A DNA stretch of 20,000 nt from Eremomyces bilateralis CBS 781.70 (lineage: Eukaryota), in NCBI GenBank assembly GCA_010015585.1, contig ML975155.1, one strand, 5' to 3'. This document shows, in pieces, positions 3,408 through 20,000 of this stretch (positions within the stretch are counted from its first letter, which is position 1; each line of letters opens with the position of its first letter). A program made the position numbers and the translations under genes. The notes beneath the pieces were generated by a model. That model did no database searches and had not been told where the DNA came from. It saw only the letters and a program-made list of their open reading frames with translations.

Positions 3408-6032
3408 TCAATTCCATCCCAAGCTGTTTTCGCTCATGACCGGCGCGCTGATCTGGGTCGTACGAATGCTCCGGCCCTGGCTACTTCCGCTCTGGCCTGC
3501 GGAACTGCCAGACAGGCCGCTTCGGTCGGAGTATCGGCTCTGGCGTCCGCTCATTCCGGGGGTGACTCTGTCGTGGCCTGCACCCGTCATCCATGGTCCG
3601 CCCTCCTGGCTACCGCTTTGAACGGAGCTGGTTCGCTGGTGCCGTCGTGCCTTGCGTTGCTTGTACCGCCGTGCGACGAGGACCATGGCACCTCCGTACA
3701 GCACTGCGCCGACTGCCGCTGACACACCAACGGCCACGGAGGTGGATTTTACTGGAGACGAGGACGATGCATCGCCCCCAAACGCGGAACCGCCATCGGC
3801 TTTGGTGGGCGACGATGCCGATGGATTGTTAGGCCCCGTGCCCCTGTTATCGTCCAAGAGTTGGCCAGGTAGGAGAGGAATGGACGGGTTGATCAAGCCC
3901 ATTAACGTTCGCGCCGATTCGTCCGGGTTTCCGTACAATTGGCTGACGGGCGAAAGCAGGTCTGCACCGAGCTGGCTCACCTTGTCGGACGCAACGTAAA
4001 AGAGGGCAAGCGTGGTGATGTATTGAAGATCTTCGGTCGTGTCATAGGGTTGCAACGCGTAGAAAACCACCTGCTCCCGTGGAATTTTCAGGCCAAAGGC
4101 GATACCTTCGGGAAGGAAGCGGTAAATTTGGCGTCTGCTAACTGAGCTCGACGACACGAATGGGAAATTGAGCGGATAACTGAAACCAACTTGAACAAGA
4201 GTCGAATCCTTCGGGGCTTCTGGCGTGCCTCCAGGCGGCTTGATGAGTTTTGGCATGGTAGACGGGATGCCCGTCTCGACCGCAGTCAGTGTAACCGTGT
4301 TCGACGTCGGTTCGGCAACGATGCTGCTCGGAACAAATTGCGTGCTGAGCGTATCGGACCCGGTGGGGATGACGCTAAATACGGGCGCCTCGCTTAACGT
4401 GGTTGGTCCGGGAACCACAGTTGACGGGGTCTCGATTTGAGATGTCGCAGAACTGGTAGCGGATAGGGAAGGGTCCACGATACCACTAACCGACGATGAG
4501 CTCACTGGTAGGGAGCTAGAAGGTGATTCCGATAATGAAATGGGTCCCGTTGGATCAGATACTGGAATAGTAGAGTTGCTGATAGGCAGGTCGGTCGGAA
4601 GCGTACTTGAGGTGCTTTCCAAGGTCGGAGTGCTGACAGGTGGTGCCGTCGGGTTCGCGATAAATGAGCTCTCTGTCGAGTTATCTGGCGTCGACGTGGG
4701 AAAGGCCGGATCCGAGGTTTCCGGGGGGACCTCAGATACAATTGACGAGGCCTCCGATGCAATAGAGGACAGGATCAATGACAGATCTTGGGTCGGGGCC
4801 ACAGGGTCCGTGGGATTCGGCGAGGAACTGATGCCTGAAAATTCGGACGCGGCTGAGGACAAGATGCTAGAGATGTCCTCACTAAGAGACTCTGAGGGCG
4901 TCGGAGAGCTCGTCAAATCGCCCAACGCACTGGACGCTTCGGACGCGATTGAAGAGATAACATCTCCTGGGTCGGGTGGTGAAGTGGTCTCCGGTGGAGC
5001 TGATGAAGTGGGAATCGAGTCTGGTGGGAAGGATTCAGACCCGGACGGAAGTGCTTCAATCGAGCTGGAAGCACCGGTTCCCAGCGCGCCAGTTGGGAAG
5101 ACTCCTCCTGTTAGAGATCCGATGATCCCATCCAAGAAATCACCCGATGAGGAGGTGGGAGTAGCGAGATCCGATGGCTCAGAAGCTGAAGTCGATATGA
5201 CCGAATCCGACGCCGAGCTGATGACTGTGGAGAGCCCTACAATGATGCCAGTGGGTGACTCTGACGTCGAAGGTGCAGTTTCGGATGACGGGTCCGGTGT
5301 ACTTGATGGTTGCAAGACCGTCTCGGGTGTTCCACCGGTGCTGGATTCAAAGAAAGCACCGCCGAAGGGGACCGATAAACTTGGAAGTATGATACTCGAC
5401 GGAACTCCCCCGCCGCTGCTCGGGTCGCTCTCCGAATTAGATAATGAGCTTTCTAGAGATGGTGTCGGTAGGAGGGTGGGAAGGGAGAGTCCATTCGATC
5501 CGATTCCAATACCTAGGTCTAGAATGGGGGAGGTCGGCGTCTCGGAAGTCTCCGGCACCACCGGCGCGGTCCCTGACTCTGCGACACCACTTGGGGGAAG
5601 GATACCATCGGTAGTCCCCGACTCTGCGGAACCGCTTGGGAGAAGGATACCATCGGCGGTCCCTGACTCTGCGGCGCCACTTGGGGGCAGGATACCTTCG
5701 GCGGTCGGAGTGGCCATCGGATCGAATACGAAGACACTTGTCGAACTCACTACGATAGTCGTGACAGCATCCGAAGATGTTGTCTCCTCCGTCAAGTCGC
5801 TTGCGATGTTACTGATCAGACCCGAGAAGTCTGACTCCTGGGCGTCTGGTACAGGTAGCAATGCACTCAAATTGCCGATCTGTCTCTTGACAACCCGGGG
5901 AAAATAGTACCGCGGACGGTCGGGGTCTCTGGTATTGGGAGGGGCCGGTGCGGCTTCGGCGTATGTTAATAGTGGCCCGCAGAATGAGACCATGGCCATA
6001 GAGGCCGCTAGAAATCCTCGAGACTGCACCAT
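3408..6032 (-). CDS. MSB2: Signalling mucin Msb2/Hkr1 family, single coding exon, about 874 aa
   Basis: First true ATG is at 6032 (the ORF track start at 6056 is TTG). The protein has a signal-peptide-like N-terminus, a PRYYFPRVVKR dibasic site, a long Ser/Thr/Pro-rich mucin region, a conserved juxtamembrane domain (LVQVGFSYPLNFPFV...QIYRFLPEGI...LQPYDT), one TM helix (VAVGVSAAVGAVLYGGAMVLVA) followed by RRYK, and the Msb2-typical C-terminus ISAPVMSENSLGWN. Confidence 0.93.
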   Translation of the reverse strand: MVQSRGFLAASMAMVSFCGPLLTYAEAAPAPPNTRDPDRPRYYFPRVVKRQIGNLSALLPVPDAQESDFSGLISNIASDLTEETTSSDAVTTIVVSSTSVFVFDPMATPTAEGILPPSGAAESGTADGILLPSGSAESGTTDGILPPSGVAESGTAPVVPETSETPTSPILDLGIGIGSNGLSLPTLLPTPSLESSLSNSESDPSSGGGVPSSIILPSLSVPFGGAFFESSTGGTPETVLQPSSTPDPSSETAPSTSESPTGIIVGLSTVISSASDSVISTSASEPSDLATPTSSSGDFLDGIIGSLTGGVFPTGALGTGASSSIEALPSGSESFPPDSIPTSSAPPETTSPPDPGDVISSIASEASSALGDLTSSPTPSESLSEDISSILSSAASEFSGISSSPNPTDPVAPTQDLSLILSSIASEASSIVSEVPPETSDPAFPTSTPDNSTESSFIANPTAPPVSTPTLESTSSTLPTDLPISNSTIPVSDPTGPISLSESPSSSLPVSSSSVSGIVDPSLSATSSATSQIETPSTVVPGPTTLSEAPVFSVIPTGSDTLSTQFVPSSIVAEPTSNTVTLTAVETGIPSTMPKLIKPPGGTPEAPKDSTLVQVGFSYPLNFPFVSSSSVSRRQIYRFLPEGIAFGLKIPREQVVFYALQPYDTTEDLQYITTLALFYVASDKVSQLGADLLSPVSQLYGNPDESARTLMGLINPSIPLLPGQLLDDNRGTGPNNPSASSPTKADGGSAFGGDASSSSPVKSTSVAVGVSAAVGAVLYGGAMVLVARRYKQRKARRHQRTSSVQSGSQEGGPWMTGAGHDRVTPGMSGRQSRYSDRSGLSGSSAGQSGSSQGRSIRTTQISAPVMSENSLGWN
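5566..5706. repeat. 45-bp coding tandem repeat, 3 copies plus a fragment, inside MSB2 (15-aa unit like TADGILPPSGAAESG)
   Basis: Units 5566-5610, 5611-5655 and 5656-5700 resemble GCGGTCCCTGACTCTGCG..CCACTTGGGGG.AGGATACC.TCG. Confidence 0.95.
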
Positions 6033-6101
6033 CGTGAAATCAATACGTCCGAACAAGATGCAATGGAAATGATGCCGCTGGAAAAGATGTATATGGAACG
6101 A

Positions 6102-14703: not shown

Positions 14704-15356
14704 AATTGGAGGCCCAAGAAGGGGACGATAGCGTTGGGTGAGGAAACCCTGTGGCCGATATCCCCGTGGTAGGTAGACTGGTAATTGTTCCTATCCAGTA
14801 TGAGGGCCCCATTTCATTGATATGTATCATAATGACTTACCAAAGAAACACGATTGACAACAAGGAGTATTGAACGTAACTGTCAACCCGATGATCTTAA
14901 GTTGCCGCAATGCGCATGTGTTACAGGTACTGGTACTTAGATATATCTAACTACTTCAGATCACTTTCTGTTTACAACAGCAGTTGGAGCAGAGGGACAT
15001 AGAGGTTGAAAGAAGAAAAGTGGGCCAGCCGGGGTTCACACATCGGTAGAAATTCGGTTCAGTTCCTGAGCATCATGGGCTTCGGAGCGGAGACAACACC
15101 GCACCGGACTTTATTAGTGGAGTAAGGGTCAGTGCTAGTATCAATAACATCACGTTGCGATGCGTCGAAAAAGCCTGGAATGTTCAGCAGCAACGGACTG
15201 TCATTCTCATTCTCGATCCAGATTATATAGATTTGTCCTGTATCGATGAGCAAGGCGGCTTCGCTGGAGCGACAGCGCCAAGCCGTGCATGATGATTTGT
15301 TATAACCCTAGTTCCCCACATGAGCCTCGCAGAGAGACCTGACGGTCGTATGAATG

Positions 15357-15373
15357 TCTCTCTCTCTCTCTCT
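15357..15373. repeat. (TC)n microsatellite immediately 3' of the AKR stop codon
   Basis: A run of about 8 TC dinucleotides. Confidence 0.85.
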
Positions 15374-15377
15374 GTAT

Positions 15378-16642
15378 TCATATATGTCCCTGAATAGATT
15401 TTGGCTCATACAACTCCTCTAAGTACTTCGTCTCTTCTTCAGTTAGTGTTTTCCCTGTCGCTGCAACTGCGTCATCAATCCTCTCCAAGCTACTGAACCC
15501 AATAATTGGGCTCGCCACCTTCGCATTCGTCCATGCTAGTGTCACCTGTGTCATAGTCCATCCCTTCTTCTGCGCCAACTCCTGTACTCTCTTAATCGTT
15601 TCCTTATCTGCCTCTGTTGACCAATTCGCAAAGTTCTGCGGTCCTGAACTCCTGTCTGTCTTCCCAGACTCTTCCAGCGGGCGAGCAAGCCATCCACGAG
15701 CAAGAGGCGCCCACGGAATTAGACCAACGCCCGTCTCATTGCAATATCGGTTCATCTCTCGTTCTTCTTCGCGATAGAGAAGGCTATAGTGGTTCTGCAT
15801 TGACACAAACTTTGTCCATCCGTTCTTCTCCGCGGCAAATTGCATCAAGGCGAATTGATAGGTCCACATGGAGGATGCACCGATATAGTGCACTTTTCCG
15901 GACTTCACCAGATCATGCAACGCTTCTATAGTCTCCTCGATCGGGGTGTTTTGGTCGAAGCGGTGGATTTGCAGCAGGTCAATGTAATCGGTTTGCAGTC
16001 GCGCCAAAGAATTATTGACGGCTTGGAATATCGCTTTGCGTGACAATCCTCCTTGATTGACATAGTCTTTCGATTTCGCAATCTGAGGACCCACATTGAC
16101 CGTCCGGAAAGCGGGATCCTCGGAGACATAGCCATAACATTTGGTCAGGATAACAAGCTTATGGCGCGGAATTTTGTATTTCTTGATGGCGTTGCCGATA
16201 ACTTTCTCACTGATGCCATTGCTGTAGGAGTTGGCTGTAGACAGTAAGTACGATGGAGAGTAAGATGGATCAGGAACCTGGTACCTGTGTCCCAAGTGTT
16301 GAGGCCGACATCGTAGGCATGTTTCAGGAGTGGGAGAGCCTGAGCGTCCGACGTTAGTCGATGGATACCTCAGAGAATTTAAATCAATTTCTTCGAGATA
16401 TTCTGCTAAGTAGGCGTACTTTATCCTCATCCTTTACCCAGTTCAACCTGCCATTGGTTAATTTTATTCCTGTCGAGATATTCGTTCGTCTAAGGGTCGT
16501 ACCAGTTGGAGGTACCAAAGCTCATGGCGCCCAGGATGGGGACCGACACTCGTAAGCCACTCTTTCCCAGTCTTCGATACTCCACCTTCGTCTCCTCCAC
16601 GGAGGTATTGAATCTTTTAAGAGCTTCCTCAACGGACGACAT
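15378..16642 (-). CDS. Aldo-keto reductase (YajO / aryl-alcohol dehydrogenase-like subfamily), about 359 aa; exons 16642-16503, 16447-16420, 16339-16285, 16234-15378
   Basis: Spliced protein contains [23 protein letters not shown]...[17 protein letters not shown]...LTKCY...[19 protein letters not shown]...[14 protein letters not shown]...[14 protein letters not shown], with the Asp/Tyr/Lys/His catalytic tetrad. Three GT-AG introns (55, 80 and 50 nt) restore the frame; total 1080 nt. Confidence 0.93.
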
Positions 16643-17490
16643 TGTGGCAGTAATCTCAGATAAATTTAAAAATTGCTCTCGGGTTGATGCTACCAAGGGA
16701 CGCTCAAAAGGGGTGGTAAAAGAATCAAAGGTCCTCAGACAACCGAAGGAAAATCTCGTGCTTAAATAGCTTCAACTTGACACTCGAAAAGGAAATGATC
16801 TAAAGGGTCCGATATGATCGCGCAATATCGCGTTTCTACTAGGGTAGCTATGTTTATATGTATCTTCTAGTATAAATGCGGATAGGAATAATTTCTGGGG
16901 TTTCATATCCGTACTACGCATACATACATTCGCCGGAATGGCCCCCCTATACATCAAATTGCTATTACGGAGTAAAGTTTCTTAATAAGACACGTTTCGA
17001 TCCAACAGAGAGGATGGTTGATATCCAATAGTTATCAACTCCTAACTAGCTGAACGATGACGAGGTGTTGTAGGGTATGTACGGATAAGATGTTATTAAG
17101 GAAGCAAAGGCACTGGTTGAAGGGTAGATTGCCTCTAGGCTATGCAGGATATTGGTTATGAACAGAAGAAGAATATACATAATAGTTACCTCCTTTAAAC
17201 AACCTGACGGCAGATTGACCTCCGTTTTGGGCGGTTTGTGACGCCGTTTTTACTGTAATTTGAGGACCTGTGACTGCCTCTTTGAGACTAGCGTGCCAGT
17301 TCGGGATTAGTGCTCTTTTCCGTTTTCAACCTTCCCAAAACTTTCAAACATAAATACCTCTATTATCCCCCCCTCTCGTAAACCCGCTCTCCTCTATCTT
17401 TTCCCATTCACAAATTCATTTCCTGTCCGCCTTCCTTGCCTCCCCTCTTCGTTTCCGTCGGCCCACCAGCCCACTTTCACCCCTGTGACT

Positions 17491-17620
17491 ATGCCTGCCC
17501 GCGTGAGGAGTGTTGACGATCCACCAGACATTTTCTCGCGGCGGCCACCCCGCCTACCTCCTTCATTCGATTCATGCGACTTGACTGTTCCCCCCTCTCA
17601 AAGGCCCCTCCATTCCAATG
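17491..17620 (+). CDS. Candidate first coding exon of the + strand microexon gene (MPARVRSVDDPPDIFSRRPPRLPPSFDSCDLTVPPSQRPLHSN), phase-1 end
   Basis: Lies downstream of a pyrimidine-rich promoter-like tract (about 17330-17490). The ATG has A at -3, runs 43 codons open and ends at a canonical GTGAGT donor (17621) with a stop just inside the putative intron. No homology recognised. Confidence 0.3.
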
Positions 17621-18549
17621 GTGAGTAATTCTGCCCCTTGTCTCGCTCATCCTGTCCGCCTGGGCGAAACGCCCTCGTTTCGTTACTAGCGGTGCCCCAA
17701 AACCATTAGGGCAGTAAAGGGAGAGTCACTATCTCGCGCACGAAGGCGCTGGGATATTTCTTCTCTCGGTCTCTTTAGTTTAGATTAATGGAACTTGGTG
17801 ATCGCAGACCTTGCACATCCAGATCGTGTCAAAATGTACTCGAATCATTTATAGAAGCATTACGAAAGGCTGTCTTTTCATAGGTGTTCGTGTCGCAAGA
17901 TGCCCCTCTTCGTTTCTACTACCACGCAGCATTCTTCTTCTGCCCATTACCCCCAGGCTAAGCCTATTTAGGACTGCCCACTCATTTCCTATATTTACAT
18001 ATCTTCAACGGTTTAGCTAGAGATCTCTTTTCGGGACACAATGGGAATCGTTAATAATATCAACATGCGTTGTGTCTACACAGTAACTGAGCTTAAGCAG
18101 CGAACTTGCTTAATCATCACCCCCGCGTAATGCGACAGTTTGGAGGTTGGCTTTAGTGCGGGGTTCACGGAACGCTAATACGCGATTCGCTGCTCAACGG
18201 AACTCAATTTAATAAAGTGAGGCCGAAGAATCAGCAGGCAGCTGGTGTCGTTGACCAATGAGTCAACGACATGTCGACTTTGCAGGATTCTGGTCAAAGA
18301 ACCGGTTATGACCTTGAAATAAAATGTGAAGCTCCCCTCTCGTCTGTTGTTACAGAAGAACACCTTAGATTTACTATGCACTTCACTTGCAACGGCATAC
18401 TACGCATTCAGAATAACGTGAAAAATGTCTCTGGCTTGGATTCATGACGGGTTTAAGGTACTTTTTAGTTCATCTGGCCTTCCTAAATCGATGTTAAAGG
18501 AAAGTAAAGAAACGATAAATCGCTAACTCTGTTCATCTCACTGGTTTAG

Positions 18550-19969
18550 CACGTAAGCCAACCTGTCTAAGATGGACCAGATGCTATGACAGCTAACCAT
18601 GGTCTTATTTATTGGTATAGGAAGTAAGTCGACCTTTCTAAGATAGACGGGATATTATGACGGCTGACCGTGGTCTTATTTATTGGTATAGATAGTAAGT
18701 CGACTTCTCTAAGATAGACGAGATACTATGTCAGCTGACCGTGGTCTTATTTACTGGTATAGCGGGTAAGTCGGCTTCTCTAAGATGGATGAGATGCTAT
18801 GACGGCTGACCGTGGTCTTATTTATTGGGATAGGAAGTAAGTCGGCTTCTAAGATAAACGAGATATTATGACGGCTGACCGTGGTCTTATTTATTGGTAT
18901 AGATAGTAAGTCGACTCCTTTAAGATAGACGAGATATTATGACGGCTGACCATGGTCTTATTTATTGGTATAGTGGGTAAGTCGACTTCTTTAAGATAGA
19001 CGAGATACTATGACGGCTGACCGTGGTCTTATTTACTGGTATAGATAGTAAGTCGATTTCTCTAAGATAGGTAAGATATTATGACGGCTAACCGTAGTCT
19101 TATTTATTGGTATAGCGGGTAAGTCGACTTCTCTAAGATAGAGGAAATATTATGACGGCTAACTGTGGTCTTATCTACTGGTATAGGAAGTAAGTCGACT
19201 TCTTAAGATAGACGAGATATTATGACGGCTGACCATGGTCTTATTTATTGCTATAGGCAGTAAGTCGACTTCTCTAAGATAGACGAGATATTTTGACGGC
19301 TGACTACGGTCTTATTTATTGGTATAGGAAGTAAGTCGACTTCTCTAAGATAGACTGGATATTTTAACGGCTAACCGTGGTCTTATTTATTGGTATAGAT
19401 AGTAAGTCGACTTCTCTAAGATGGATGAGATGCTATGACGGCTGACCGTGGTCTTATCTACTGGTATAGGCGGTAAGTCGACTTCTCTAAGATAGACGAG
19501 ATATTATGACGGCTAACCATGGTCTTGTTTATTGGTATAGGAAGTAAGTCGACTTCTCTAAGATAGATAAGATATTATGACGGCTGACCATAGTCTTATT
19601 TATTGCTATAGGCAGTAAGTCGACTTCTCTAAGATAGACGAGATGCTGTGATGGCTGACCGTGGTCTTATTTATTGGTATAGATAGTAAGTCCCCTTCTT
19701 TAAGATAGACGAGGTACTATGACGGCTGACCGTGGTCTTATTTATTGGTATAGCGGGTAAGTCGACTTCTCTAAGATAGACGAAATATTATGACGGCTGA
19801 CCGTGGTCTTATTTATCGGTATAGCGGGTAAGTCGACTTCTCTAAGATAGACGAGATATTGTGTCGGCTGACCGTGGTCTTATTTATTGGTATAGGAAGT
19901 AAGTCAACTTCTCTAAGATTAATAAGATATTATGACGGCTAACCGTAGTCTTATCTATTGGTATAGGAA
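18550..19969 (+). CDS. Putative coding segment made of 21 consecutive 3-nt microexons (partial gene, product unknown)
   Basis: Spacers in order: CAC GAA ATA CGG GAA ATA TGG ATA CGG GAA GCA GAA ATA GCG GAA GCA ATA CGG CGG GAA GAA. Each is flanked by an upstream TAG and a downstream GTAAG(T/C), every intervening unit has CTAAC or CTGAC, and no spacer is a stop codon. No transcript evidence is available. Confidence 0.65.
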
Positions 19970-20000
19970 GTAAGTCGACTTCTCTAAGATAGACGAGATA
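18553..20000 (+). repeat. Tandem array with a 71-bp period (20 full units plus a partial one, continuing past the window); each unit is a 68-nt intron-like sequence plus a variable 3-nt spacer
   Basis: Consensus GTAAGTCGACTTCTCTAAGATAGACGAGATATTATGACGGCTGACCGTGGTCTTATTTATTGGTATAG followed by NNN. Unit starts: 18553, 18624, 18695, 18766, 18837, 18906, 18977, 19048, 19119, 19190, 19260, 19331, 19402, 19473, 19544, 19615, 19686, 19757, 19828, 19899, 19970. Confidence 0.98.

Follow-up and report, generated by a model that had tools for sequence, protein, structure and literature searches.

What is the tandem array that fills the end of the stretch of Eremomyces bilateralis CBS 781.70 analysed here, a window of 20,000 nucleotides (nt) from contig ML975155.1 (assembly GCA_010015585.1)? 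From position 18550 onwards, short intron-like units follow one another head to tail, and just three nucleotides are left between the acceptor of one unit and the donor of the next. The original prediction, made from the letters alone, took these triplets for microexons and proposed that their free combination could diversify a protein. Our analysis makes it probable that the array belongs to the 5' part of a transcribed ascomycete gene, whose coding sequence is split into at least 21 single-codon exons by near-identical introns.

Parsing of the window by AG-NNN-GTAAG sites yields a regular series of triplets on the plus strand: CAC at 18550, GAA at 18621, ATA at 18692, CGG at 18763, GAA at 18834, ATA at 18903 and TGG at 18974 in units 1-7; ATA at 19045, CGG at 19116, GAA at 19187, GCA at 19257, GAA at 19328, ATA at 19399 and GCG at 19470 in units 8-14; and GAA at 19541, GCA at 19612, ATA at 19683, CGG at 19754, CGG at 19825, GAA at 19896 and GAA at 19967 in units 15-21. 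The unit at the edge (18550..18620) combines the microexon CAC (18550-18552) with the most divergent intron copy (GTAAGC, CTAAC, TATAG), and the twenty further units (18621..20000) each consist of a 3-nt microexon and an intron of 66-68 nt, the last being cut by the window end. As the repeat detected by Tandem Repeats Finder (period 71, 20.3 copies, 86% matches) extends to base 20000, the array itself is cut there, and 21 microexons are a minimum. These coordinates, and the counts of the seven triplet types (GAA 7, ATA 5, CGG 4, GCA 2, and TGG, GCG and CAC 1 each), agree exactly with those first proposed. Each of the 20 complete units has a full set of splice signals, with a GTAAGT donor in 19 introns and GTAAGC in the edge unit; the CTRAC branch motif (CTGAC or CTAAC) lies 24 nt before the 3' end, and the stretch behind it is rich in pyrimidines and closes with an ATAG acceptor. 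A pattern of three such units, intron and triplet, matches 18 times in the window versus not once in 200 shuffles. Because all frames through the unit are closed on both strands, the array is not an ordinary coding repeat, and no open reading frame (ORF) of more than 61 codons overlaps it.

Apart from their splice signals, the introns are plain. The five that were folded show no secondary structure beyond that of shuffled sequences (z -0.09 to 0.57), and the intron consensus finds only six matches of 9-13 nt in the other 18.5 kb of the window. The possibility of a small-RNA host gene, in which tandem introns would each yield a small nucleolar RNA, was dropped, Rfam giving no match at gathering thresholds in the whole window. 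There is also no higher-order repeat, as intron identity is raised at none of the offsets from 1 to 10 (0.88-0.90); the triplets recur most often at offsets 5 (7 of 15) and 10 (5 of 10), a weak tendency.

That the triplets are exons in fact is seen in RNA. Contigs from one public sequencing run (X1; 31 million letters, 0.43 of sampled words) were aligned to positions 15300-20000, and one of them, 1303 letters long, skips three CT..AC introns (GT..AG on the minus strand) of the neighbouring aldo/keto reductase gene, so that the run represents complementary DNA. Within the array, one contig has GAA inserted behind 19118, which gives CGG+GAA, the triplets of units 9-10 (depth 59.2 of 362.6), and another has GAAGCA inserted behind 19472, which gives GCG+GAA+GCA, those of units 14-16, at full local depth (38.6 of 38.6). 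Such insertions arise only by the removal of whole introns, hence the 3-nt exons are used, and both joins of several triplets that can be placed keep the genomic order. The spliceosome removes array introns and joins neighbouring codons, and the triplets enter RNA; they are real microexons, as had been proposed, and not a silent satellite. A further GT..AG joint, from 18623 to 19399 (GAA|ATA), skips 775 nt and is ambiguous: its junction is identical to that between the neighbours GAA 19328 and ATA 19399 (units 12|13), and since the spliced junctions 12|13 and 2|3 share 47 identical bases, a 31-mer graph may have crossed over from one to the other and produced an assembly chimera. In the contig that carries both this joint and the one leading into the array, 18550-18623 is unbroken, and the intron of the edge unit thus appears to be retained there. 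Every junction looks alike, so that short reads and k-mer contigs cannot count isoforms.

The phase in which the triplets are read follows from the exon in front of them. This 5' exon (18369..18457, plus strand) is covered by an RNA contig and is followed by a first intron of 92 nt (18458..18549; GTACTT ... CGCTAAC ... TTTAG), the sequence of which is unrelated to the array unit. The joint from 18457 to 18550, placed by the aligner at 18455 to 18548 and corrected by a shift of the cut by two, has GT..AG ends and is seen in one contig at a depth of 294.9. The ATG at 18425 opens 11 codons, MSLAWIHDGFK, that run to the exon end; as it is the only ATG that is open to 18457 and ends there on a codon boundary, the array is entered in phase 0. 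The check advised at the outset, to fix the phase from the first conventional flanking exon, thereby came out as phase 0 and not as phase 2. In this phase the 21 triplets translate to HEIREIWIREAEIAEAIRREE. An exhaustive test bears out that any subset of the exons is free of stops in phases 0 and 1, with no stop among the triplets and none in the 210 ordered pairs, and that the third frame alone meets stops, as it does in 42 of these 210 pairs. The suggestion of an amphipathic helix or coiled coil found no support, for 22% of 20000 shuffles reach the observed 100-degree hydrophobic moment. As an observation on the side, the first intron begins with GTACTT, and the three reductase introns (16235-16502) begin with GTACCA, GTACGC and GTACGA; compared with the GTAC of these adjacent ordinary introns, the GTAAGT or GTAAGC of the array units makes for stronger donors.

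Within the array, the exonic nucleotides are the most variable ones. In an alignment of the units, the first two triplet columns have entropies of 1.71 and 1.96 bits, whereas the maximum among intron columns is 1.11; pairwise diversity is 0.643 for the triplet versus 0.108 for the intron, and the triplet ranks first of all 71 three-column windows. Relative to the consensus, the introns have changed by 67 transitions and 12 transversions, the triplets by 16 and 13. The splice signals are invariant in all 20 complete units while other intron columns vary. The intron of the edge unit is the most diverged, with a best identity of 0.853 to that of any other unit, as is expected at the edge of an array that is kept uniform by unequal exchange.

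Arrays of this kind are not confined to the window. When metagenome contigs were scanned for the three-unit pattern, at least 117 stretches matched, and many of the matches listed are genuine arrays, their intron-like units being 65-80 nt long and their 3-nt spacers variable; examples have 29 (locus L039), 27 (L013), 23 (L093), 22 (L108) and 21 units (L100). A filter that is blind to the triplets kept 43 chains in 37 loci, those in which 60% or more of the units have CTRAY located 8-48 nt ahead of the acceptor and in which the intron GC content is 30% or higher; the number of chains and the counts that follow likewise apply to the matches listed. Just 2 of the 447 triplets in these chains are stops, both in L085, versus 27.4 expected from the position-specific composition, and when each triplet type is counted once per chain, there are 2 in 253 versus 15.5 expected. 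At offsets 1 and 2, stops number 13 and 53 of 404. To judge by these sequences, the depletion of stops in phase 0 is a coding signature of the related arrays. Among metagenome chains of at least seven units, 40 of 43 have an entropy in their triplets that is higher than the mean over their introns; this set had been pre-filtered for three or more distinct triplets and against richness in TAA or TTA. The early remark that no triplet ends in T is true of the window's array and does not extend to its metagenome relatives, in which 55% of the triplets do. The introns fall into 29 consensus families among 44 chains, mostly one family per locus, which argues for homogenisation within each locus and against a single mobile intron as the seed of the arrays; some families recur on several contigs, for example on L007, L034, L090, L104 and L110.

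The surroundings of several metagenome arrays agree with a coding role. In L013 (3990-6600), ATG AAA is followed by an intron, by about 35 single-codon exons and by an ORF of 125 codons, all in phase 0. The exons encode a hydrophobic stretch rich in Ala, Leu and Pro, and some units have damaged donors (GAAAGT, GTAAGA) and must be skipped as longer introns; the 125-codon ORF belongs to no known family, and its nearest Atlas clusters are uncharacterised proteins of Ascomycota. Of the 78 flanking ORFs of at least 95 codons (out of 193 of at least 70 codons, from 20 loci), 55 were compared with Pfam. In L039, a NACHT/NPHP3_N ORF lies directly upstream of the array, and in L033 an ankyrin ORF; both meet the array on a codon boundary, in phase 0. 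Upstream of the L062 array lies a winged-helix domain of a kind that is typical of NLRs in fungi, and downstream in L018 a HET ORF. P-loop matches below threshold occur in L003, L028, L038 and L040, with retroelement domains in L028, and no Pfam family was found in the other flanking ORFs of this set. The upstream ORF of L022, ankyrin-like by eye, gave no Pfam family and is not counted. Searches with blastn and tblastx revealed no homology between the flanks of the window and 116 metagenome loci; of the intron, a piece of 16 nt recurs in L085 alone. This locus (1-1373, minus orientation) contains intron units that are related to that of the window but decayed and AT-rich: G>A and C>T differences are numerous, several donors are broken (ATAAGT, GTAAAT), TAG and TTA occupy triplet positions, and the last intron at the 3' end of the array is a different one. 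It has the look of a microexon array in degeneration, to which a repeat-induced mutation process may have contributed.

Other matches are of a different or doubtful nature. L029, L043, L014, L024, L059, L114 and others are AT-rich satellites, of period 48-52 and with TAAGTAAGT-like motifs, that match the pattern by composition; TAA and TTA make up most of their triplets, and the rejected chains contain 144 stops among 517 triplets. The eight repeats of 65-66 nt with AGC or AGT spacers in L047 (3996-4454) lie between ORFs and match by chance, not being introns; the contig, of 212 kb, appears bacterial, and the ORF just downstream of the repeats resembles a response regulator by eye. In L010 (1-3250), 45 consecutive units of about 72 nt all have GGA as spacer, with the branch motif in a fraction of 0.11 of them; they are either microexons that would spell poly-glycine or parts of a satellite with no more than an outward fit to the pattern.

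How, then, might such a gene work, and how could it have arisen? We propose that a short exon with the ATG and an ordinary 92-nt intron would be followed by single-codon exons, separated by introns of 66-68 nt with optimal fungal splice signals. The mature mRNA would carry all triplets in phase 0 behind the 11 codons of the first exon, and its translation would add HEIREIWIREAEIAEAIRREE... to the protein. The array may have grown by tandem duplication of units of codon plus intron, with unequal crossing-over or gene conversion keeping the introns alike while the codons would stay or become different. At the DNA level, this would be the pattern of the sensor domains of fungal NLRs, in which strongly conserved repeats contain hypervariable positions, taken to the extreme of one residue per repeat. 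As every donor and acceptor of the array is equivalent to the others, the mechanism of splicing would allow microexons to be skipped, never with a loss of frame, and such skipping may be combinatorial.

Several observations speak against this proposal. The locus was met in one run only, and the RNA label of that run is a guess. Among the contigs listed from it, there is no fully spliced mRNA across the array, and those with joined triplets still retain flanking introns. One contig, in which GACAGC is inserted behind 18690, reads AG|ACA|GCG|ATA together with the next base; neither this succession nor an ACA triplet occurs in the window's array, and a paralogue or the continuation of the array past base 20000 is the probable source of the contig, skipping being another possible origin. 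Two ATGs further upstream, at 18271 (58 codons) and 18376 (23 codons), lie in other frames that stop at 18445-18447, and given a transcript start located further upstream, they could pre-empt the ATG at 18425. In the other ORFs of the window, ATA and CGG are used as minor codons, for 15% of Ile and 10% of Arg. The downstream part of the gene, with the continuation of the frame, lies beyond the window end. Finally, no NACHT or ankyrin ORF lies upstream of the array, which leaves an immune-receptor context for the gene unproven.

Some of these points would suit an array that is spliced without being translated, as part of a long non-coding RNA or of a 3' untranslated region behind the 58-codon ORF (18271-18447), so that introns would be removed merely because they are complete, and the triplets would hold no information for a protein. 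The stop of this ORF 10 nt before the first donor, the several ATGs ahead of 18425, the strong RNA cover further upstream (17480-18030), the minor codons and the lack of a Pfam family on nearby plus-strand ORFs are all in line with this, and yet we consider it unlikely. It would leave the avoidance of phase-0 stops in the related arrays without a reason, as well as the continuity in phase 0 with flanking ORFs in L013, L033 and L039, and neutrality does not predict triplets that are six times more diverse than the introns. Moreover, the 58-codon ORF belongs to no family, and contig depth, a poor measure, is 59 in the bin 18126-18282 versus 357 in 18283-18439, a difference that is compatible with a transcript start downstream of 18271.

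The retained introns in every contig with joined triplets, and at face value also the joint from 18623 to 19399 with its ten units skipped at once, could alternatively point to an intronic minisatellite, for which the mRNA would pair the first donor with the last acceptor or make use of hardly any of the sites, the joined triplets being rare by-products. The two independent contigs that join neighbours in genomic order, one of them at full depth, make this very improbable; so does the invariance of the splice signals in all complete units against the variation of other intron columns, and stop avoidance across the family makes no sense if triplets are never kept. Still harder to credit is a mobile introner-like element that spread in a burst of repeated insertions side by side. 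Introner-like elements have a stable predicted secondary structure and are longer than the array intron. They resemble the array in being near-identical spliceosomal introns in many copies, and the recurrence of some intron families on several metagenome contigs would fit them as well. However, they are dispersed in unrelated genes, and tandem duplication within a gene lies behind fewer than 1% of the gains of single introns in Zymoseptoria, according to a passage of Collemare et al. (2015; PMC4457414), whereas the copies here are short, strictly tandem and without predicted structure. The window holds no dispersed copy of the intron, the introns fold no better than shuffles, the families are mostly restricted to one locus each, and the strict 71-bp head-to-tail register with its diverged edge unit is typical of tandem duplication.

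The single-codon exon reading, which we thus prefer, has a published precedent. In the expanded NACHT-ANK (nank) family of the truffle Tuber melanosporum, tens or dozens of codon-sized mini-exons of 3 bp were described by Iotti et al. (2012; Fungal Biol 116:261-275), as far as excerpts of the papers citing this work relate (PMC4986451, PMC10197012, PMC3689799, PMC13449251, PMC9815663), and alternative splicing is said there to diversify the C-terminal recognition domain. According to these excerpts, the likeness to the window is close: tens of consecutive 3-bp exons with short introns, of which the window has 21 triplets, in an ascomycete gene, with mini-exons that are joined in RNA, and with post-transcriptional diversification as the proposed outcome; L039 with its NACHT ORF and L033 with its ankyrin ORF share the genomic context too. 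However, the truffle arrays as cited lie in NACHT-ANK genes and affect the C-terminal sensor domain, whereas the array in the window is 5'-proximal, 11 codons after the ATG, and instead of a NACHT or ankyrin ORF, a reductase gene on the opposite strand abuts it upstream. Thus the idea of an immune-type diversification by interchangeable codon-sized exons, put forward in the original prediction, matches what is reported for the truffle but finds no NACHT-ANK gene upstream of the array at this locus.

Other repeat systems are more distant. The sensor domains of fungal NLRs (WD40, ANK, TPR) consist of repeats of high identity that are thought to be reshuffled by unequal crossing-over, as passages of PMC9815663 and PMC13449251 have it. 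The units of the array share with those of high internal conservation the combination of high-identity tandem units and hypervariable positions. In the repeats so described, however, all of the unit codes for protein and forms a repeat domain on folding, whereas here the conserved part is intronic, one codon per unit is exonic, and with all frames closed, no unit encodes a WD40, ANK or TPR fold. In the polyubiquitin gene UBC, tandem dual-specific AGGT splice sites allow stochastic splicing to change the number of units in frame, in the available extract of Duan et al. (2024; PMC10809524). Interchangeable splice sites at every boundary of a tandem unit are thus common to both systems as far as this extract goes; there, the unit is a whole exon coding for ubiquitin, and the sites overlap in AGGT, whereas here one codon stands between acceptor and donor, and the repeated unit is the intron. 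The literature on arrays of 3-nt exons or on tandem introns outside the NACHT-ANK context gave single 3-nt exons and no arrays, the former in animals, plants, Coprinopsis (27 exons in 26 genes) and a dinoflagellate. Runs of symmetric tiny exons are also known from the micro-exon genes of schistosomes, whose exons of 6-36 nt remain in frame under skipping; these exons are longer, and the introns are not tandem copies. An acceptor directly before a consensus GTAAGT donor is the hallmark of the recursive splice sites of Drosophila, which differ in that an exon of zero length is left.

The ORFs of the window include a coatomer beta' protein, a WD40 protein, a ZFAND1-like protein and the aldo/keto reductase, the gene of which (15378 to about 16770, minus strand) lies just upstream of the array gene. 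Between the two, no plus-strand ORF exceeds 105 codons and none has a Pfam family, and no NACHT or ANK match was obtained in any ORF of the window that was tested. The region in front of the array gene, at 17480-18030 (more widely 17190-18140), has the highest depths of RNA contigs in 15300-20000, with bins of up to 2172.8; contigs have loose ends at 17190, 17247, 17762, 17831, 17925 and 18138 and carry variant letters, and a 46-codon ORF starts from an ATG at 17491, with no family match in Pfam or Rfam. It could be a multi-copy expressed repeat, a small transcript in its own right, or a long 5' leader that belongs to the array gene. Elsewhere in the window, an ORF of 882 codons (3408-6056, minus strand), whose nearest Atlas clusters are MSB2-like mucins of Ascomycota, contains a 45-bp tandem repeat (5569-5706; 3.1 copies, 84% matches).

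What do these observations mean for the genes of such fungi? Arrays of this kind have been in print since 2012 for NLR-like genes of the truffle, and the idea of diversification mirrors the published one, in so far as the citing papers convey it. In the excerpts, later papers citing Iotti et al. (2012) repeat the truffle arrays only as a lineage-specific curiosity, and one from 2026 still terms mini-exon arrays a lineage-specific strategy. To this, the locus of E. bilateralis adds direct RNA evidence of ordered joining and a 5'-proximal position without NACHT-ANK upstream, and the metagenome scan hints at an architecture that is common and bears a signature of coding, and suggests that it is commoner and more varied than stated in the literature cited here. 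Tentatively, and because of the at least 29 intron families, the avoidance of stops in phase 0 and the hypervariable codons, we consider that microexon arrays may be a widespread architecture of soil- and root-associated fungi, homogenised per locus and found also at the 5' end of non-NLR genes, as in the window and in L013, where the product would be an N-terminal peptide that is hypervariable, to which each repeat contributes one residue, and that is under diversifying selection. If this is true, 5' arrays would be a second, intron-borne form of the principle of hypervariable repeats. Since such runs of 3-nt exons are invisible to gene predictors and short-read aligners, genes of this type are systematically mis-annotated. 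Runs of at least 21 consecutive 3-nt exons also test the limits of the spliceosome in exon and intron definition. And if skipping is real and frequent, the arrays would provide a means of generating, after transcription, variants that differ in length and sequence in putative recognition proteins of fungi.

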